A DNA stretch of 20,068 bases from Promethearchaeota archaeon. Lineage in GTDB: Archaea > Asgardarchaeota > Lokiarchaeia > Sigyniarchaeales > SOKP01. Position numbers and translations under genes: made by a program. Under the pieces are notes generated by a model. The model was not told where the DNA came from and did not search any database. It worked only from the letters and a program-made list of their open reading frames with translations. Where the stretch lies: assembly GCA_008080735.1 (NCBI GenBank), contig SHMW01000026.1:1-20068 (forward strand), given 5' to 3'. Positions within the stretch are counted from its first letter, which is position 1, and each line of letters starts with the position of its first letter. Positions 313 to 18,713 of the stretch are shown here, piece by piece.

Positions 313-1791
313 CTATTTTAGTAATTTTACATGAAGATGAAGATGAAAAGTACGGGGTCCAAAAGTTACTAATATATAATAATTCTCTCTTCCTCCAATA
401 TCAAGTTCGCCTCCCGAAATAGGCAGAATTAATTGTCTATTTCCGAAATTAGTGGCAAGATCATGATCAAATCTATTAAAATCTGCTCTGTTCTCCAATG
501 CTCTAACAGTATGGAAATATTCAGAACTATCGTCTCTCCCCAATTCGGAAAATCTAAAATGAAGATCCAAATAATTTCCATACTCATGTTCGTTAGTAAT
601 TAAAGTAGTAGTAGTATGATATGATTTTAAAAATAGATTTCCCTCATTATAGTCAGGAAATTTTTCCTTAGCAGCTCTAAACACATCTTTAATAATATTT
701 GTTAAGAATATCAGTTGCGTTATACTATAACTCCGTAATTTCAATTTGTATGATACATTAATTTCATTCTCATTTTCTAATATATTTGCTTGGTTTATGT
801 TTAACAAGGTTTTGTATCTGTTCTTCTTTTCCTCTGAAATTTCGCAAATTTTGTTGTTTAACCGAACAGCATTTCTAAAAACCCAAGTTCTTAATAAACA
901 TTTTTGAGAAAAGGATATATCTTCGGTTGCCTCCAACAACCCTCTACACATTTGAGATGATTCTAGGGTGGGGCTGGCGCTCCCGATTACTAATCTATGC
1001 CAAGTGTTTTGAATAAATCCATCTATAGAAAACAAATTTTTAAAATATTTAGTAGGAGTCATTCCTCCTATACATCTTGGTTCTAATTCGAGCCAAAGAT
1101 TATTATAATAATGTAATAATTGATAATATAGTCCCAAATCTCCTGAAATGTCTAATCCACTTAGTATAATCTTAATATCGAGATGTTTACTTATAAAAGA
1201 TTGGATGATTTCTTTAGAAACAAATCCACTATGATATTCGGGAAAATAAAAATTACCAATATCTATTTTTAGAAATAAGCCTTCTTTTCTAAGATAATCT
1301 AATACCCTATTAAATTGAGCGTTCTCAGGATTATTTAAATCAAGTTTTGTATAAGAAGGATAAAGAACTATTCCTACGACATCCACTATTTCATCAATTT
1401 TTTTGAGTTCTTGTATTAGATCTTCATTTGGTTGAGTTAATGTAAATGATAAGATTGCCTTGAATAAATCTGGCTCATTCTTTGCTACATTAATCAGGTC
1501 TTCATTTTCAATTCCATATTCTCTACCTAAATTTAAAGCTTGAAGAAAAGCTATTTCTATATTAGAACATTGCAATTCTACTTTAAGATCATCTAAATCG
1601 AGCTTTCTATGATAAAAATAGGGATATCCTTCTAGATTTCTTAAAGAAAGGAGTTTTTGTAATTTTTCTGAACGTTCACAATTTTCAAATATAGGCCAGA
1701 CAAGACTATCAATCTGGGGATAAAGAAATGCATTTGCGTATCGTTCTCCAAAAATACACGAATAATCTGGCTGATATAAGCGTTCATTCAT
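313..1791 (-). CDS. Fusion: degenerate amidohydrolase-like TIM barrel (N-term) + YjbQ/UPF0047-like domain (C-term, ~aa 345-492)
   Basis: The C-terminus has YjbQ-like motifs HTTTTLITNE, YFH...N..DH, LILPISGGELDIG, FGPR. N-terminal segments GIVLYP, LKIDIG, IILSGL, NNLWLEL, RLVIGSASP follow the Amidohydro_2 strand order but lack the metal ligands. Confidence 0.7.
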   Translation of the reverse strand: MNERLYQPDYSCIFGERYANAFLYPQIDSLVWPIFENCERSEKLQKLLSLRNLEGYPYFYHRKLDLDDLKVELQCSNIEIAFLQALNLGREYGIENEDLINVAKNEPDLFKAILSFTLTQPNEDLIQELKKIDEIVDVVGIVLYPSYTKLDLNNPENAQFNRVLDYLRKEGLFLKIDIGNFYFPEYHSGFVSKEIIQSFISKHLDIKIILSGLDISGDLGLYYQLLHYYNNLWLELEPRCIGGMTPTKYFKNLFSIDGFIQNTWHRLVIGSASPTLESSQMCRGLLEATEDISFSQKCLLRTWVFRNAVRLNNKICEISEEKKNRYKTLLNINQANILENENEINVSYKLKLRSYSITQLIFLTNIIKDVFRAAKEKFPDYNEGNLFLKSYHTTTTLITNEHEYGNYLDLHFRFSELGRDDSSEYFHTVRALENRADFNRFDHDLATNFGNRQLILPISGGELDIGGRENYYILVTFGPRTFHLHLHVKLLK

Positions 1792-9647: not shown

Positions 9648-11669
9648 ATGAACAAAACTAATGGGAATGAAAATTCCTATAAGAATTTAAAAAAAGAGAG
9701 TAAGCAAAACAATTTAAAGCATACCACATTCGGCCCAATAGAAAATCTGGAAGAGTATGTAAACACGGATTGGTGGAAAAATCTTTTTAATTCCAATTAC
9801 TTAAAAACAGATGGGGATGTCGTCAATGATCCTGAAATCACATCTCACGAAGTAAATCTATTGATAAATCTTCTCAATCTTAAAGAAAACGATAGAATTC
9901 TAGATTTATGCTGTGGGCAAGGTAGGCATTTAATTGAACTGTCTAAAAGAGGTTTTAATCATCTTTATGGCTTGGATCAATCATCTTTTTTAATAAGAAA
10001 AGCTAAGTCGACAGCTTTGAAAGAAGCATGTGCTATTCGCTTTAAAGAAGGGGATGCCCGTAAATTACCTTATCCATTAGATTATTTTGATTATGTTATG
10101 ATATTGGGAAATAGCTTCGGATACTTTGAATCGAAACAAGACGATCTTAAAGTATTAAAAGAAGTGAGAAGAGTTTTAAAACCTTATGGAACAATCTTTT
10201 TAGATCTTACTGATGGAGAATATCTCGCAAAAAATTATAGTCCTCGATCGTGGGAATGGATAAATAAAAGGTTTTTTGTCTGTCGGGAACGAAGCCTTTC
10301 TTTGGATAAGGATCGGTTAATTTCGAGAGAGGTAATAACAGATGTGAATCAGGGGGTAATTGCAGATCAATTCTATGCAGAAAGGCTATATACAAAAGAG
10401 AAAATTATTGAATTACTGAAGGTTGCGACGTATCTTGAACCTGTTTTTCACGGAGAACTGAGTGCTAACTCTAAAAAGAACCAGGATCTTGGTATGATGG
10501 AAAAGAGAATCCTTGTCTCATCGCGGGTACAAAAAGAATGGACTCCTAAAAAGCCACGTAAAGAAGTCAAAAATGTGATCGTTTTAATGGGGGATCCAAA
10601 TAAAACTGATATTGTAAAACCTTCTCATGTGTTTGACGAGGACGATATGTATACCATTAACGAGTTAAAATCTGCGCTACACGAATTGGATGATTATAAT
10701 TTTACATATCTTGATAATCATGACACACTTATTTGGGATTTGACGAAAAAGAGAAACAAAATTGACTTTATCCTTAATTTATGTGATGAAGGGTATTACA
10801 ATGATGCGCGTAATGAATTGCATATACCTGCATTGTTGGAAATCCTGAAGATCCCATATACGGGGGGCGGTCCTCAGTGCTTGGCATTTTGCTATGATAA
10901 ATCTTTAGTACGAGGAATCGCAAAAGAAATGAATATTCCAGTTGGAGATGGAATTTATGTAAAACAAGAAGATTTTACCTATCAATTCCTTCCCTTTAAT
11001 TTTCCAGTACTAGTAAAACCTAATTTTGGAGATTCAAGTTTTGGTATTACTCAAAACAGTTATGTAGAAAATGGAGAGGGTTTAGTAAACATTATCAACG
11101 AAATCAGACAAAAGTTTGGCTATGATAAACCTATTTTGATTGAAGAATTTCTACCAGGTGCTGATTTATCCGTAGGAATAATTGGTAATCCCGATGAAAC
11201 TTATCGAGTTCTTACCATCACCGAAGAAGATTATTCAGAATTACCAGAAGATATTCCAAAAATTTGTGGATATGAAGCAAAATGGATGCCCGATTCTCCA
11301 TATTGGAATATTAAATCGATACCTGCCAGAATAGATGATCAAAAAAAGCATTTCATAATCGATTGTTGCGTGAAATTATTCAAACGGCTTGAGTGTCGAG
11401 ATTATTGTAGATTTGATTGGCGTCTTGATGCACAAGGTAATCCTAAGCTTCTTGAAGTCAATCCAAATCCGGGATGGTGTTGGGATGGACATCTTGTTAA
11501 AATGGCTAAGATTGATGGGCTTTCTTATAGCGATATGTTAAAAGAGATTTTAGAAGCCGCGGAAAGAAGGATTGGGCTAAGAACATCTCAAGAAGAATTG
11601 GAAAAATCCGATCAAGAATGCAAGATTATAGACAAAAAATCCTCAAAAGATCCTATTATTTCTACTTAG
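9648..11669 (+). CDS. Class I SAM-dependent methyltransferase fused to a D-Ala-D-Ala-ligase-like ATP-grasp domain
   Basis: N-half: ILDLCCGQGRH, GLDQS, GDARKLP, GNSFGYF. C-half: IPYTG, DKSL, PVLVKP, SSFGI, IEEFLPG, RFDWR, LEVNPNPG. Confidence 0.9.
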   Translation: MNKTNGNENSYKNLKKESKQNNLKHTTFGPIENLEEYVNTDWWKNLFNSNYLKTDGDVVNDPEITSHEVNLLINLLNLKENDRILDLCCGQGRHLIELSKRGFNHLYGLDQSSFLIRKAKSTALKEACAIRFKEGDARKLPYPLDYFDYVMILGNSFGYFESKQDDLKVLKEVRRVLKPYGTIFLDLTDGEYLAKNYSPRSWEWINKRFFVCRERSLSLDKDRLISREVITDVNQGVIADQFYAERLYTKEKIIELLKVATYLEPVFHGELSANSKKNQDLGMMEKRILVSSRVQKEWTPKKPRKEVKNVIVLMGDPNKTDIVKPSHVFDEDDMYTINELKSALHELDDYNFTYLDNHDTLIWDLTKKRNKIDFILNLCDEGYYNDARNELHIPALLEILKIPYTGGGPQCLAFCYDKSLVRGIAKEMNIPVGDGIYVKQEDFTYQFLPFNFPVLVKPNFGDSSFGITQNSYVENGEGLVNIINEIRQKFGYDKPILIEEFLPGADLSVGIIGNPDETYRVLTITEEDYSELPEDIPKICGYEAKWMPDSPYWNIKSIPARIDDQKKHFIIDCCVKLFKRLECRDYCRFDWRLDAQGNPKLLEVNPNPGWCWDGHLVKMAKIDGLSYSDMLKEILEAAERRIGLRTSQEELEKSDQECKIIDKKSSKDPIIST

Positions 11670-11750: not shown

Positions 11751-13178
11751 ATGTCTTTTTCATATCATTGCTATAATTGCGATAACCAATTTAATAGCTC
11801 ACAAGTAAGCTATAGCTGTCCGAAATGCGAAGGATTAGTATTAATTGAGACTATTACTGAAATTGTTAAAAAATTATTTAGCAAGAAGTTTCAGCCAGAT
11901 AGTTTTTGGGATTTCAGAGCAATCTTACCAAAAATAGATGATCAGTTTATTGTGAGTTTAGGTGAAGGAGGAACTCCTTGTAGAAGATCAAAACGGTTGG
12001 GTAAGATTTGGAACATAGATGGGCTTTATTTCAAAGATGAGACACAGAACCCTACAAATTCCTTCAAGGATCGCGCCGCAGCATTACTTGTTTCTCATGC
12101 TCAAAGCTTAAAAAAGAATAAAATAATATGTGCTTCAAATGGAAATCAAGGAGCATCAATAGCCGCTTATGCCTCATTAGAGGGAATGGAATGTACTAAC
12201 ATTATACCCAAGAAAATTGATGTGGGTAAGAAAGCCCAAATGATTGCATACAATTCTAAAATTATTGAAAACGGAGATTATGTAGATGAGGCTATTGAAG
12301 AAGCGATTAAATCAAAATATAAAGAATATTATCAAGCAACTCCCGAATTTAATCCATTAACTATTGAAGCTCAAAAAACCATTTCATATGAAATTTTCCA
12401 GCAGGTTGGACCAATAGAAGGGATAATAGTACCCATGGGAAGCGGGGGGTTATTATTGAGTATATGGAAAGGATTCAAAGAATTGAGAGAGGGAGGTATT
12501 ATAAAAAGTCTTCCAAAAATGATTGGAGTACAATCACAAGCATCATCTCCGATAGTAAATCAAATGGAGCAGATCGAAGAAATCTTGAATAAGCCCATAA
12601 AAAAGGGATTTAATTCCTATGCTCTGGGAATTTTAGTTAAAAAGCCGTTTTATCAGGATCTAGCCCTTAAAGCAATTAAATACTCCAATGGGATGGCTAT
12701 ATCTATTCCAGAAAATATTATGCTCACTTCTGCTGAAGAGCTAGCGAGTAATGAAGGGATATTTGCTGAACCTGCCTCAGCTCTCACTGTCGGTGCGTTA
12801 AACATCTTACGTGAGGAAAACAAAATTCGAACAAATGAGAAAATTGTCTGTATGATTACAGGGTCTGGTTTAAAAACACCACATGTTCTGGAGGCGCTTT
12901 CGAGTAGAGCTAAGACCGCAGGACTAGGGGGTATATTAAGTACAAAATTAAAAATTCTCTCTCAAATCTCTATTTCCCATAAAAATGGAATTTATGGAAA
13001 AAAAATCGGAGAAATTCTTGGAGGTATCAGTCTTGCCGCCGTTTATCAACATTTAAAGGAATTAGAGGAGCGAGAACTCATTAAACGGCAAAAAAAGGGA
13101 AAATCGGTATATTATCGAATTACTGAAAAAGGAAAGAAGGTCTTAGAAGCGCTTGAAACACTTATCACGTTGCTATAA
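11751..13178 (+). CDS. thrC: Threonine synthase-like fold-type II PLP enzyme with an N-terminal Zn ribbon and a C-terminal winged HTH
   Basis: CYNC/CPKC, SLGEGGTP, NPTNSFKDR (PLP lysine), ASNGN, VPMGSGG, EPASA, TGSGLK. The last ~80 aa, SLAAVYQHLKELEERELIK...YYRITEKGKKVL, are an ArsR/PadR-like wHTH. Confidence 0.85.
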   Translation: MSFSYHCYNCDNQFNSSQVSYSCPKCEGLVLIETITEIVKKLFSKKFQPDSFWDFRAILPKIDDQFIVSLGEGGTPCRRSKRLGKIWNIDGLYFKDETQNPTNSFKDRAAALLVSHAQSLKKNKIICASNGNQGASIAAYASLEGMECTNIIPKKIDVGKKAQMIAYNSKIIENGDYVDEAIEEAIKSKYKEYYQATPEFNPLTIEAQKTISYEIFQQVGPIEGIIVPMGSGGLLLSIWKGFKELREGGIIKSLPKMIGVQSQASSPIVNQMEQIEEILNKPIKKGFNSYALGILVKKPFYQDLALKAIKYSNGMAISIPENIMLTSAEELASNEGIFAEPASALTVGALNILREENKIRTNEKIVCMITGSGLKTPHVLEALSSRAKTAGLGGILSTKLKILSQISISHKNGIYGKKIGEILGGISLAAVYQHLKELEERELIKRQKKGKSVYYRITEKGKKVLEALETLITLL

Positions 13179-13208
13179 GAGGATTTGAGCTTTTTAGATC
13201 CAATACTT

Positions 13209-13832
13209 TTATTCATTAAGTGCTTTGTGAACATTGAAATCTTGCTCTTCGCTTATAAATAGCTTTTCGAATAATTGAGGTAATGATTCATACAATCCTT
13301 TTCTGAGAGGAATTGTCAATAGTAATGAAATTGTGATTCCAAGAGAATATTGAATTAAGCTATTCATAAATATTTCATATAACGCAGCATAGAATCCAAA
13401 TAATATGATCTCATAGATGAAATAACCAAAAACCATAATTAAACCTCCAATAGCCACACCAATTATATCCCGATAAGTTAGATTTCTTCCATTGCGTTTT
13501 GGGTCCGCAATTAATCCAACCACAAATCCTTCTAATCCTTTTATGATTAAAGTTGCTGGTGCATATATAAGAGCTCCTAGAAAGATGTCTGCTAAAGCCG
13601 AACCGATGCCTCCTGCTAATGCTCCTACAAAAGGACCAAATAAAAGAGCTGCTAACATCACCACAGCATCTCCAATGTTTATGTATCCTTGAGTCGCAGG
13701 AATAGGAATGGCAATAAGCATCGTAATTACACATGCTAATGCACCAAAAATTCCGATTAATGAGAGAGAAATCGAATTAGTTGGAGAGTAATATCCAAAA
13801 ATGGTTTTTTCATAACTTTTTTGACTATTCAT
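13209..13832 (-). CDS. ECF transporter S component (resembles the HmpT/PdxU2-type group)
   Basis: IPIPATQGYINIGDA...LLFGP..GALAGGIGSALAD...APATLIIKGLEG, with 5-6 TM segments. ATG at 13832 (alternative TTG 13844). Confidence 0.85.
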   Translation of the reverse strand: MNSQKSYEKTIFGYYSPTNSISLSLIGIFGALACVITMLIAIPIPATQGYINIGDAVVMLAALLFGPFVGALAGGIGSALADIFLGALIYAPATLIIKGLEGFVVGLIADPKRNGRNLTYRDIIGVAIGGLIMVFGYFIYEIILFGFYAALYEIFMNSLIQYSLGITISLLLTIPLRKGLYESLPQLFEKLFISEEQDFNVHKALNE

Positions 13833-13848
13833 TTTGTTTACCAACCTA

Positions 13849-13870
13849 TATATAAGTTATAACTTATATA
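13849..13870. promoter_or_regulatory. Perfect 22-bp palindrome, candidate operator of the ECF S gene
   Basis: TATATAAGTTATAACTTATATA is its own reverse complement. It lies between the putative TATA box and the start codon of the ECF gene. Confidence 0.65.
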
Positions 13871-13893
13871 ACTTCAAACCTAGATATAATCTG

Positions 13894-13910
13894 AACCTTA
13901 TAAAGGTTTT
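13894..13910 (-). promoter_or_regulatory. Putative BRE/TATA box of the ECF S gene
   Basis: The minus strand reads AAAACCTTTATAAGGTT (A-rich element, then TTTATAA). Confidence 0.5.
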
Positions 13911-13961: not shown

Positions 13962-14744
13962 TTATTCTGATTGGCATTTAGGGCAATAAAACCCATGCCG
14001 ACTTGAAATTTCATATCTTTTAATCCCAGAACCGCATTTTGGACAGTTTTCCTCTTTATCTCGATGTAGCATTAAATACTCATTGGGAAATTTTGTATTT
14101 TTTATATTTAATTCTATCGCTGTATTCAAAACCTCTAAAATAGATTCATAAAGAGTCTCAATAGTAGCACTTTTCAGAGTAGATATTTTAGTTTTGGGGT
14201 AAATCTTTGCTTGAAAGAGGATTTCATCAGAATATTCATTTCCAATTCCGCTTATAGCACTCTGGTCCATCAACGCGGTTTTAGCATATGAACGCTTCTT
14301 ATTTTCCATAATCATTTTAAATTCATCAAGAGTAAGCTTAAGAGCGTCTGGACCGATTTCATTCTCTTTAGCATATTCGGAAATTTCATTAACAATTTGA
14401 ACCCTTCCGAGTTTTCTGACCGATACTATAGAAAGATAATCGCCATTTTTAAACTCAATTTGAATTTTGCTATATTCTGGTTCATTCTTCGGATTATTAT
14501 AATATTTCACGGTTCCACTCATAGCGAAATGAAGCATTAGATTTTTGGAATCGAAATGAATAAATAGGTATTTACCTCTTCGTTCAGTTCGGGTGAATTT
14601 CTTTCCTATCAATGCTTCTTTAAACTCTTTTGTTGGCATTTTTAAAATATAATCATCATGAACCGTGATTGTTGAAATTTCTTTATTAAGCGCACTTGGG
14701 TCTATCTCCTTTCTAAAGCTCTCCACTTCTGGCAATTCTGGCAT
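13962..14744 (-). CDS. mutM: Fpg/Nei family DNA glycosylase/AP lyase
   Basis: N-terminal MPELPEVE, RRGKYL, H2TH motif LMDQSAISGIGNEYSDEILF, C-terminal zinc finger CPKC...CPKCQ. Confidence 0.92.
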   Translation of the reverse strand: MPELPEVESFRKEIDPSALNKEISTITVHDDYILKMPTKEFKEALIGKKFTRTERRGKYLFIHFDSKNLMLHFAMSGTVKYYNNPKNEPEYSKIQIEFKNGDYLSIVSVRKLGRVQIVNEISEYAKENEIGPDALKLTLDEFKMIMENKKRSYAKTALMDQSAISGIGNEYSDEILFQAKIYPKTKISTLKSATIETLYESILEVLNTAIELNIKNTKFPNEYLMLHRDKEENCPKCGSGIKRYEISSRHGFYCPKCQSE

Positions 14745-14926: not shown

Positions 14927-15202
14927 TTGGAAATAATAAAATTTTTAGCAGATAAGCTGGCTCGTAAGATTGGTATGTCTGCCGTAGCGGCACGAGGACT
15001 CATCAAATTATCGATTAAAGACAAATATGGCCCCTTTAAACCATATGAACAATTAACGTATGGAGATTTAGAACAAATGATTGAAGATTCTCTAAAGAAA
15101 CGATTAGAAGAAATCGAAATAGATAATCTAGAAGATCTAATAACATTTCTGAAAACGGAACTAAATGAAAATCAATCTTTGATCACTATGGGGGCTGTTT
15201 GA
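14927..15202 (+). CDS. Small soluble helical hypothetical protein (copy 1)
   Basis: 91 aa, TTG start. 58/91 identical without gaps (manual count) to 16079..16354, which supports it being coding. Confidence 0.85.
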   Translation: MEIIKFLADKLARKIGMSAVAARGLIKLSIKDKYGPFKPYEQLTYGDLEQMIEDSLKKRLEEIEIDNLEDLITFLKTELNENQSLITMGAV

Positions 15203-15264
15203 AAAAATCATGATAATAGAATACATATCGAAATTCGAATTAAAAAGAAAGAGCGTATCACAAA

Positions 15265-15972
15265 ATGTACTCAACGATTTATAATGTATTTAATATAATG
15301 TTTATTGTATTTATTGGGAGTTTATTAGTTAATGGAATATTTCTTTTAATTCGCTCTTATAAGCTTAGAAGGCTTAATGTTTTTCATATTGGTATAGCTC
15401 ATATTTTCATCGTATTGGGATTTGTAGGAAATTTAATCTTCAATCTATCTCTCCTTTTTGAAGAGACATTTGTTTCCTTGGGTTTCTTTTTCGGTGTACT
15501 TTTCACATTCACCACTTTCCATAAAAATCGTGATATAAATGCAAAGTACACTCTCCTTTTCATAAGTATCTTGTTGTTAGTACATTATATTTTTCAAGTT
15601 ATTTATTTTATCACTCCCGGGAGTTTAGTCCATATAATTAGCAAAATTTTAGATATTGCTAGCACATTTTCGGTTTTCGGCTGGATGGGTTTCTCATCAT
15701 TCTTTGCTTATCAAAGAATTAAAGATGAAAATGTACAAGATTGGATCAAATTTAGGTACAAACTTATCAGTTTTTCAGCGTCAATTTTAAGCTTGCAAGC
15801 CATTCCAGAGCTATTTATACGATATGATGTTGAATATGGAGATCCCGCCAACTTGGGTACATTAGTTATTTTTGGTTTTACCTTAATATTTTCTCTCATT
15901 TTCTCAATAGGTTTTTTAATTGCGTGGATTTTTCCAAAATATATTAAAAAGGTTAGTTCTCCTGAAGAATGA
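15265..15972 (+). CDS. Seven-transmembrane hypothetical protein (copy 1)
   Basis: Seven hydrophobic segments. Collinear paralog of 16402..17127. Confidence 0.85.
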   Translation: MYSTIYNVFNIMFIVFIGSLLVNGIFLLIRSYKLRRLNVFHIGIAHIFIVLGFVGNLIFNLSLLFEETFVSLGFFFGVLFTFTTFHKNRDINAKYTLLFISILLLVHYIFQVIYFITPGSLVHIISKILDIASTFSVFGWMGFSSFFAYQRIKDENVQDWIKFRYKLISFSASILSLQAIPELFIRYDVEYGDPANLGTLVIFGFTLIFSLIFSIGFLIAWIFPKYIKKVSSPEE

Positions 15973-16078: not shown

Positions 16079-16354
16079 TTGGAAATTATAACTTTATTAG
16101 CGGAAAAACTCGCTTCTAAAATAGAAATGACTCCCACTGCTACGAGAGGATTAATAAAATTATCTATTAAAGATGAAGTGGGACCATTTAAACCAATTGA
16201 ACAATTAGATTATGATGATCTAATGGATATAATTAATCGCTCATTAAAAAAAAGATTAGAGGCGATTAAAGTTGATAATGTGGATTTAATCATTAAATAT
16301 TTAGCAAAAACGCTAATCGAGAATCAATCTCTTATAACGATGGGATCCGTATAG
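16079..16354 (+). CDS. Small soluble helical hypothetical protein (copy 2)
   Basis: 91 aa, TTG start after GAGGT. Shares RGLIKLSIKD, GPFKP, SLKKRLE and ENQSLITMG with copy 1. Confidence 0.85.
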   Translation: MEIITLLAEKLASKIEMTPTATRGLIKLSIKDEVGPFKPIEQLDYDDLMDIINRSLKKRLEAIKVDNVDLIIKYLAKTLIENQSLITMGSV

Positions 16355-16401
16355 GAAGAAAAAATAAAAATCTAAAAAAGTTTGAGCTGATAAAAAATAG
16401 T

Positions 16402-17127
16402 ATGTTATTAATATATAATATCTTTACATTGTTATTCGCTGTATTTATATCCCTATTGTTGATAACGGGAACATTTTTAATAACTAGGGCGGTATATCTC
16501 AGAAAATTAAACGTTTTTTATATCGGAATCGCATATATTCTAATTGGATTTGGGTTTATTGGAAACCTCGTATTCAAATTAGGTATCATATTTGAAGAAA
16601 TTTTTGTATCATCTGGATTCAGCTTTTTGGCTTTATTCACATATACCACATTTTATAAAAACCGTAATCACAAGGCAAAATATTTATTAACTTGTGTTCT
16701 TTCACTTTTGGTCATCCATTTCATATTTAAGGTGATTTTCTTCATTCAGCCAAACGAACTTACGCATATTATTCGTAAAATATTCGATGTTATTAGCACC
16801 TTTAGTATATTCGCTTGGATGGGCTTATCTTCCTTAGTCGCATACCAGAGAATTAAGGATGAAAATATCCAACAGTGGATTAAAACAAGGTACAAAATAT
16901 TTTCTTATTCAGCACTATTATTAAGCGTTCAAGCAATTCCCGAATTATTTTTACCTTATGATGTCAGTTATGGAGATCCAGATTTTAATGCTGTATTGAT
17001 ATTTGGAATCACATTAATTTTATCGTTAATTTTTTCTCTCGGTTTTTTATTTGCTTGGATCATCCCTAAACAATTAAAAAAGATCAATAATAAACTCATA
17101 AGTATTTGGAATAGAAGAAAAAATTAA
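16402..17127 (+). CDS. Seven-transmembrane hypothetical protein (copy 2)
   Basis: Seven hydrophobic segments. Shares GNL, FEE, AYQRIKDEN.Q.WIK.RYK, QAIPELF, YGDP and AWI.PK with copy 1. Confidence 0.85.
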   Translation: MLLIYNIFTLLFAVFISLLLITGTFLITRAVYLRKLNVFYIGIAYILIGFGFIGNLVFKLGIIFEEIFVSSGFSFLALFTYTTFYKNRNHKAKYLLTCVLSLLVIHFIFKVIFFIQPNELTHIIRKIFDVISTFSIFAWMGLSSLVAYQRIKDENIQQWIKTRYKIFSYSALLLSVQAIPELFLPYDVSYGDPDFNAVLIFGITLILSLIFSLGFLFAWIIPKQLKKINNKLISIWNRRKN

Positions 17128-17192: not shown

Positions 17193-18713
17193 ATGAATAA
17201 GCAAATAATATCTGAACTGAAAAACGAATTGTATAATTCATTATTTGAAAGTTTTCCAGATTTGATATTCCTTATAGATTCAAAAGGAAGGATTCTTGAT
17301 ATTTCTAAAAGTGTCCTTGATCATGGAGCACTTAGGAAAAATAATATAATCGATAAATTAATTTTCAATTTCATTCACCCTAGTCAAATAAATTCAGTTA
17401 GAGAAAGTTTCAATGCGTTATTGAATGACGGAAAACTGGAAAAAAAAGAATACAAATTAAAAAGATTAGATGGCTCGTATTATTCCGCTGAAATAAGTGC
17501 GATTTCAATTGAAAAACACAATTCACAGTATATTTTAGCTGTTATAAGGGATATATCCGAAAAAAAGAAGGCAAGAAATCAATTAAAAAATAAAAAGGAA
17601 ATGTTTCAGCTTGTCATCGACAACATCCCGCAATATATTTACTGGAAGGATAAGGACTCTATATATAAAGGCTGTAATGAAAACTTTGCGCGGGTGGCGG
17701 GCGTACAAGAACCTGAGTATATTATCGGAAAAACAGACTATGATTTGGCCTGGAAACGTTCAGAGGCTGACACTTTTTATGAGATTGATCATCTTGTAAT
17801 GGAATTGGATAAACCTGAATATCATGTAATCGAGCCACAAATGCAAGCAAACGGAAAACAAGCGTGGAGAGATACTAACAGAATACCCCTTCACGATGGA
17901 AATGGAAAGGTTATCGGTGTTTTAGGCACCTATGAAGATATCACAGAGCGAATCCGGGCAGAGAGGGCCCTAAGTGATTCAAAAAAAAAATATGAAAAAG
18001 CATTTAACCGAGCGGAGTTTTATAAGGATATTTTTGCCCATGATATAAGCAATATCCTCCAAAGTATATTATCTTCTATAGAATTGTGTCAGGTATATCT
18101 GAATAAATCAGAAGATAAGAATAAGGACACTGATGAATTGAAAATGCTTTTGAAAATCGTAAATGAACAAATAGACCGCGGAAATCTTTTAATCAGTAAT
18201 ATCAAAAAATTATCATTATTAGAAAAAAGTCCGAATATCAAAACTACCGAGAATCTTCAACTATTACTAAAAAATTGCGTTCAGAAGATTTTAGAAGAAA
18301 ATTCAGATAAACGGATTGAGTTAGATCTAAATCAAGCAGAAAGTAATCCACTATTTGTACGTGGAAATAAATATTTAGACGACGCATTTTATAATATTTT
18401 AAAAAATTCTATCGAACATAACAATAATCAGAAAATTCAAATCAAAATAAGTGTGTCTGAGGTTACAAAGGCTCGTCAAGCTTACATTAAGATCGAAATC
18501 ATTGATAACGGCAAGGGAATACCGAATAAGCAAAAAGATGCAATTTTAGGGAACTTACGAGAAAAGTCTCAAGTTTCAAATAGGATAGGTTTGGGCTTAT
18601 TATTTGTGGAAAAGATTATTGCGCTATGTGGAGGAGAAATTACAATTAGAGATAAAATTGAAGGAGCTCATTCTAAAGGGACAAATTTTACAGTAATTCT
18701 TCCTAAAGAATAA
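17193..18713 (+). CDS. Cytoplasmic PAS-PAS sensor histidine kinase
   Basis: Two PAS/PAC repeats (FPDLIFLID...IRDISEKK; IPQYIYWKD...GKTDYDL...EDITER), H-box FAHDISN, N-box NILKNSIEH, G1 DNGKGI, G2 GLGL. No TM segments. Confidence 0.93.
   Translation: MNKQIISELKNELYNSLFESFPDLIFLIDSKGRILDISKSVLDHGALRKNNIIDKLIFNFIHPSQINSVRESFNALLNDGKLEKKEYKLKRLDGSYYSAEISAISIEKHNSQYILAVIRDISEKKKARNQLKNKKEMFQLVIDNIPQYIYWKDKDSIYKGCNENFARVAGVQEPEYIIGKTDYDLAWKRSEADTFYEIDHLVMELDKPEYHVIEPQMQANGKQAWRDTNRIPLHDGNGKVIGVLGTYEDITERIRAERALSDSKKKYEKAFNRAEFYKDIFAHDISNILQSILSSIELCQVYLNKSEDKNKDTDELKMLLKIVNEQIDRGNLLISNIKKLSLLEKSPNIKTTENLQLLLKNCVQKILEENSDKRIELDLNQAESNPLFVRGNKYLDDAFYNILKNSIEHNNNQKIQIKISVSEVTKARQAYIKIEIIDNGKGIPNKQKDAILGNLREKSQVSNRIGLGLLFVEKIIALCGGEITIRDKIEGAHSKGTNFTVILPKE

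Follow-up and report, generated by a model that had tools for sequence, protein, structure and literature searches.

The gene at 11751-13178, labelled 'threonine synthase', very probably encodes a vitamin-B6-sensing switch and not an enzyme. It lies within a stretch of 20,068 nucleotides from a Lokiarchaeal genome (hereafter the window), and its product joins the fold of threonine synthase (ThrC) to a winged helix-turn-helix (wHTH). From comparative sequence analysis we consider it highly likely that this fusion is a non-catalytic repressor, which would sense B6 phosphate and act via an operator on both the uptake and the synthesis of the vitamin. Our confidence in the identity of the ligand and in the sign of regulation is lower than in the connection between regulator, operator and B6. 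An earlier note on this DNA had proposed a transcription factor built on a fold-type II PLP domain that controls B6 uptake through a palindrome. That proposal is now supported by synteny, by the distribution of the motif, by the joint loss of motif and gene and by the presence of a separate thrC. The features of the region are as follows.

11751 to 13178, plus strand: ThrC-fold/wHTH fusion, predicted B6-responsive transcription factor, 475 aa (open reading frame, domain matches, AlphaFold model)
11769 to 11828, plus strand: N-terminal Cys4 zinc ribbon (C7, C10, C23, C26), from conservation in fused proteins
11952 to 12863, plus strand: fold-type II PLP (PALP) domain, residues 68-371 (domain match, E 2e-67)
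12066 to 12068, plus strand: Lys106, Schiff-base position (alignment with fused and unfused relatives)
12927 to 13175, plus strand: C-terminal winged HTH, PadR/HxlR/ArsR-like (domain matches and AlphaFold model)
13209 to 13844, minus strand: ECF S component of the HmpT/PdxU type, PF07155 (E 2e-36); start TTG 13844 or ATG 13832
13849 to 13870, no strand: putative operator site 1, perfect 22-bp palindrome with an 18-bp core at 13851-13868 (score 20.0, top in genome)
13867 to 13884, no strand: putative operator site 2, imperfect (score 16.9)
13885 to 13902, no strand: putative operator site 3, weak (score 9.8)

A threonine synthase fold with a winged helix

The earlier reading of a ThrC-like protein with a wHTH at its C-terminus (~12927-13175) was confirmed by PALP and HTH matches and by an AlphaFold model (pLDDT 83.7), in which residues 393-474 form a separate helix/wing domain. 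The profiles HTH_45, HxlR and PadR match at about residues 400-473 (E about 1e-5), and Y432, Q433 and H434 of the recognition helix are strongly conserved among 50%-identity representatives. At the N-terminus, C7 and C26 of the zinc ribbon are invariant in 39 diverse fused proteins, while C10 and C23 are conserved in at least 90%. The PLP lysine (Lys106) and the Gly-rich loop (residues 230-233) are kept in this protein as the note had claimed, and the altered motifs to which it drew attention, NPTNSFKDRA (usually NPTGSFKDRG) and ASNGNQ, are both there as described.

A Foldseek search returned ThrC as its top hits, the best being B. subtilis ThrC 6NMX (E 7e-24); the fusion architecture was not found in any solved structure in this comparison, the best matches being ordinary ThrC. 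A homodimer model scored 0.81 compared with 0.00 for the best control (partner pLDDT at least 83), with the runs agreeing in at least 90% of contacts and an interface through the PALP domain. Of 30 solved homodimers 20 attain the score mark, as against 1 of 23 monomers, and the pass may reflect likeness or recall because solved ThrC dimers exist. The best NCBIfam match is PRK05638 'threonine synthase' (352 bits, residues 6-469), whose curated cut-off of 421 bits is not reached. This match spans the wHTH and therefore the fusion architecture is already in databases, under an enzyme name. A true PRK05638 member (P0152, 800 bits) has its architecture and clade in common with the window's fusion; the Thermococcus member of PRK05638 falls into that clade. 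The protein is one of a widespread, PRK05638-like archaeal family annotated as threonine synthase, a name that is probably a misannotation.

The Schiff-base lysine distinguishes fused from unfused proteins. Among 50%-identity representatives it is present in 61/61 unfused proteins, and is replaced by Arg, Leu, Ile, Val, Thr or others in most of the 87 that carry a wHTH; the cofactor-pocket residues N132, G230, G232, E340 and T370 stay conserved in the fused proteins. The retained lysine reported earlier is therefore real in the window's protein but peculiar to this Lokiarchaeal clade, since nearly all fused relatives are without it. In a tree of the PALP domain only, the unfused proteins are grouped apart from the rest (SH-aLRT 99). 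The Lokiarchaeal clade that has the lysine falls, with weak support, among Arg-bearing relatives. Lys106 may thus have been either kept or regained in this clade.

A lysine-retaining form could still be a trigger enzyme, whose turnover by beta- or gamma-elimination or replacement is coupled to DNA binding. The window's protein, like the rest of the Lokiarchaeal family to which the genome belongs (f1), has an intact Lys106, Gly loop and K209, and it narrowly passes the cut-off of TIGR00260 (173.4 vs 167.1 bits). However, its ASNGNQ, PEFNPLT and GSGGL align to the ThrC motifs ASTGNT, NS.NP.R and GNAGN (2ZSJ, 6CGQ, 2D1F), which we take to be the residues holding the substrate phosphate; the cofactor pocket is kept in the fusion but these motifs differ from those of solved ThrC. 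Moreover, the Arg-bearing relatives among which the clade falls share its operator. The genome also has the second, canonical thrC that the note had suggested looking for: a gene of the E. coli/yeast type with intact motifs, near homoserine dehydrogenase (contig C47, L236:3245-4594). A homoserine kinase above cut-off was not found in the genome, so that the threonine route is only partly accounted for; nor did the genome scan find the operator motif at a thr or other amino-acid gene. We regard a trigger enzyme as improbable. This branch of the earlier proposal, together with amino-acid sensing, is disfavoured because the family has mostly lost the Schiff-base lysine and because every target found is a B6 gene.

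The S component and its putative operator

The convergent neighbour had been read as an ECF S component, and its PF07155 match agrees. Its only PDB sequence match is 4HZU_S (HmpT/PdxU2; E 1e-17), and it belongs to one family with HmpT/PdxU2 and PdxU (COG4720, PF07155). HmpT has pyridoxamine as its substrate (PMC4860826). We compared six residues of the HmpT pocket, E41, H84, Q87, Y120, N140 and Q143 (PMC4860826): three are identical in the S component, two are changed conservatively (E to D, Q to E) and H84 is replaced by K. The equivalents of Y120, N140 and Q143 are invariant in 30/30 orthologues; E41 corresponds to D or E, H84 to K, Q87 to E and W76 to Y or F. An energising EcfT module is available, as the genome has three CbiQ/EcfT genes. 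Among Asgard genomes, which are kin and not independent, the S gene occurs in 8 of 38 with pdxS vs 194 of 213 without it, and pdxS was not found in the present genome (93% complete). B6 is the likely substrate of this common Asgard PF07155 transporter, and the distribution indicates that most Asgard archaea scavenge the vitamin. A stand-alone kinase of the ThiD/PdxK family (PF08543; L237:1581-2336, G000:C29:29580-30323) is a candidate for phosphorylating imported B6; no operator was found before its gene.

Before the S gene stand tandem copies of the motif TATAAGTT-NN-AACTTATA. The perfect palindrome noticed earlier at 13849-13870 was confirmed over 22 bp, although it is one of three tandem sites and not a single site. 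Nor does it appear to lie in the leader, as had been thought: judging from the sequence, the sites are most likely placed over the promoter and not in the transcribed leader. Site 3 overlaps a candidate TATA box on the minus strand (13898-13904), and the whole array (13849-13902) covers this and a second candidate at 13864-13871.

A 22-bp palindrome is by itself weak evidence, because this AT-rich genome holds seven perfect palindromic 22-mers. A matrix was built from the S-gene promoters of other genomes only, with this genome left out. The window's site is its highest-ranking match in 4.1 Mb, and in the genome scan the pair of sites 1 and 2 scores 36.9 vs 17.5 for the best other locus; thus the palindrome is more than chance. 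A second strong tandem operator was not found in the genome, the other matrix matches being single or in coding DNA, and the regulon here seems to consist of the S gene alone. A weak tandem match before a small gamma-glutamylcyclotransferase-like gene (G000:C34:3677-3716) may be chance.

Several other genes of the window were also inspected. Directly upstream of the S gene and on the same strand is a bacterial-type Fpg/MutM glycosylase (13962-14744, minus strand; TIGR00577 196 vs cut-off 203), a position shared in two other genomes (G006, G012). A SAM methyltransferase fused to an ATP-grasp domain like that of D-Ala-D-Ala ligase (9648-11669, plus strand) is found upstream of the fusion in G006 and G017 as well. 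A pair of genes for a 91-aa protein and a 235-241-aa membrane protein is duplicated in tandem (14927-15972 and 16079-17127, plus strand) just upstream of a PAS histidine kinase (17193-18713), and a Pfam match was found for neither protein of the pair. Lastly, a 492-aa protein (313-1791, minus strand) has a C-terminal UPF0047 (YjbQ-like) domain just under the cut-off and an N-terminal part that by eye looks like an amidohydrolase.

Co-occurrence of motif and regulator gene

The note had named conserved synteny as a check, and the fusion adjoins the S gene or pdxST across Asgard archaea. Most relatives within the order have it beside the S gene (in this family convergently, elsewhere in tandem or divergently), and so do many other Asgard families and 3 of 8 distant contigs examined that are non-Asgard or unassigned. 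A contig search with a Thermococcus query gave just three bacterial matches, all unrelated. In B6-making Asgard genomes it is often found beside pdxST rather than the S gene, and it lies next to pdxST in families f8, f12, f19 and f28. In one genome (G083, L089:628-2998) the S gene, pdxS and pdxT follow one another, the S gene being preceded by tandem operator sites. A Lokiarchaeal genus (g3) carries pdxST (L065-L067; G008, G020); the S gene and the regulator were not found in four genomes of this genus, an apparent switch from scavenging to unregulated B6 synthesis.

The motif itself follows the regulator gene. All 18 of the f1 genomes first examined that have both fusion and S gene carry two or three copies of the motif before the S gene, and two genomes of that sample with the S gene but no fusion carry none. 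Scores in a second sample are 17-24 for five further fusion-bearing genomes and 6 or less for 14 of 15 without the fusion. Overall, the S promoters of all fusion-bearing f1 genomes (23/23) have the motif, whereas in 16 of 17 genomes that have the S gene and in which no fusion was found the motif is decayed or not there at all; for these as for the other counts without fusion, absence of the fusion is not proven because genes can be missing from incomplete assemblies. A matrix from f1 alone missed lineage variants, which were recovered with a broader training set. Trained on S promoters only, the matrix picks up a site ahead of pdxS in 13 of 15 fusion-bearing genomes, but in 0 of 17 without the fusion.

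None of the three loci (fusion, pdxST, S gene) is linked to another in Thermococcales; in Thermococcus and Pyrococcus the fusion gene comes after those for proteasome beta and aCPSF1. Across Thermococcales the motif stands before pdxS in all genomes that carry the fusion (17/17) and in none of those without it (0/13), counts that overstate independence because the 13 genomes represent only one or a few losses of the gene. Leave-one-out scores range from 12.7 to 27.6 with the fusion and are -0.2 or lower without it, with zero overlap. For 12 motif-less Thermococcales genomes the absence of the fusion was predicted beforehand, and none of the 12 was found to have it. Moreover, a matrix trained on pdxS sites of Thermococcales recovers a site in front of the unlinked S gene in 13 of 15 fusion-bearing genomes, compared with 0 of 8 without it. 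Losses of motif and gene agree in direction between Thermococcales and several Lokiarchaeal genera.

Some loci depart from this pattern. One genome (G035) has fusion and pdxS but no motif, and another (G231) has a medium-score site where no fusion was found. Where the fusion is not present, several promoters of the Thorarchaeia type still have a half-site, which falls on the BRE/TATA, and some S promoters adjoining the fusion score at background. Family members in which Ile or Leu takes the place of the lysine (L147-L154, L229-L231, L099, L080) mostly have a variant motif of the TATATAGG-N6-CTTATATA type, which suggests that wHTH and operator co-vary in these members.

The note had been able to connect the fusion to the palindrome by adjacency only. 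That connection now has strong comparative support, since motif and gene are lost together, and the motif has been found before orthologous S genes and before pdxS, the conservation that the note had proposed to look for. One and the same operator is found with the lysine-retaining clade and the lysine-less members, and motif and gene are lost jointly at two unlinked promoters. The latter also bears on whether the palindrome is the site of a different factor such as RbkR, or has arisen merely from AT-rich TATA elements, the fusion being no more than a neighbour. The genome does contain an RbkR-like gene (G000:C22:44706), PF07155 is named a riboflavin S component, the flanks of the motif are TATA-like and divergent promoters can mimic symmetry. 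However, the promoters here and in Thermococcales are not divergent from the fusion gene, a second strong tandem site is lacking in the genome scan and the published RbkR consensus motifs differ (PMC5397151). An RbkR-like factor cannot account for a motif that precedes pdxS and disappears precisely in those genomes that have lost the fusion, and we consider the attribution to another factor or to TATA elements highly improbable.

Autoregulation by the fusion was also considered and rejected, as no operator was found before its gene in about 30 Lokiarchaeal loci. It is possible in divergent arrangements, because the site is shared there.

Proposed mechanism and known systems

We propose that the fusion is a one-component transcription factor derived from a retired threonine-synthase fold. 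The protein is predicted to homodimerise via the ThrC-type interface, and the two C-terminal winged helices of the dimer would bind the palindrome; a dimer with two wHTH domains fits a palindromic site. Two or three tandem sites would be occupied over the B6 importer's promoter and, in B6-making lineages, over that of pdxST. The fold-type II pocket would bind a phosphorylated B6 vitamer, presumably PLP, possibly as a Schiff base in this protein and non-covalently in most relatives. Plentiful B6 would thus lead to repression of uptake and synthesis.

The same regulator and operator may answer to another signal or work with the opposite sign: the effector could be PMP, PNP or a PLP-amino-acid adduct, or the protein could be an activator under B6 shortage like bacterial PdxR. 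This alternative, which overlaps our preferred explanation except in ligand and sign, we think rather unlikely. An internal aldimine is impossible in most family members, which suits vitamers without an aldehyde, and HmpT carries pyridoxamine (PMC4860826). Moreover, binding by RbkR is reduced and not increased by its product FMN (PMC5397151). However, the Thermococcales sites are placed with the first one starting from the 3' end of the TATA box and the second, 23-25 bp beyond it, covering the expected transcription start. This placement and that in the present genome suggest the geometry of a repressor, and with a B6 phosphate as co-repressor it would be sensible for synthesis and uptake alike to be repressed.

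Read as a B6-responsive repressor, the fusion resembles the bacterial PdxR/MocR/GabR factors in combining a wHTH with a sensor domain derived from a PLP enzyme. The PdxR regulon comprises pdxST and pdxU, and MocR factors are reported to be absent from Archaea (PMC5320631). By comparative genomics, the targets of the archaeal fusion correspond to this regulon. However, MocR proteins have an N-terminal GntR wHTH and a fold-type I aminotransferase domain, neither of which is matched in the fusion by Pfam. The fusion has instead a fold-type II (ThrC) sensor, a C-terminal PadR/HxlR-like wHTH and a zinc ribbon, and its Schiff-base lysine is dispensable; the two are a convergent solution.

ThiR and RbkR are archaeal vitamin regulators of one kind, each pairing an enzyme fold with an HTH, and like the fusion they have palindromic operators before synthesis and transporter genes that co-occur with the factor. 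RbkR binds palindromes of 16-20 bp, often two adjacent, and has synthesis genes as well as an ECF S component under its control (PMC5397151). The sensor of RbkR and ThiR derives from an enzyme of the vitamin's own pathway, that of the fusion from an amino-acid-synthesis enzyme that uses the cofactor. RbkR, moreover, is still an active kinase and has its HTH at the N-terminus. The riboflavin kinase or ThiN sensor domain of these factors is absent from the fusion, and the RbkR-like gene is separate in the genome. With ThrC (TIGR00260; 2ZSJ, 6NMX, 1V7C) the fusion shares its fold, predicted dimer interface and cofactor pocket; it differs by the added wHTH, the altered substrate-phosphate motifs and, in most members, the lost lysine. 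By domain content, then, the predicted family is one of enzyme-derived, vitamin-sensing transcription factors outside both MocR/PdxR and RbkR/ThiR.

We know of no earlier transcription factor on a fold-type II PLP domain, and this would be the first. A description of the ThrC-wHTH family was not found in the open literature, although closed-access work or database entries may exist, and the family is probably undescribed. The only regulators named in a 2023 survey of bacterial and archaeal PLP pathways are of the PdxR type (PMC9997740), and an archaeal regulator of vitamin B6 genes is not named there or in PMC5320631.

Taken together, these data make it probable, though with less assurance than for the repressor itself, that we are dealing with an undescribed and widespread archaeal family of B6-sensing transcription factors, whose origin from a fold-type II PLP enzyme was independent of bacterial MocR/PdxR. 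Its members would read the cofactor mostly without a Schiff base, through an operator conserved from Asgard archaea to Thermococcales, and the Lokiarchaeal clade with a kept or regained lysine may sense PLP covalently. The 'threonine synthase' annotation, which can inflate metabolic reconstructions, would thereby be corrected. Archaea would gain a candidate B6 regulator with its operator and targets, testable in the tractable Thermococcales, where regulator-less species occur naturally.
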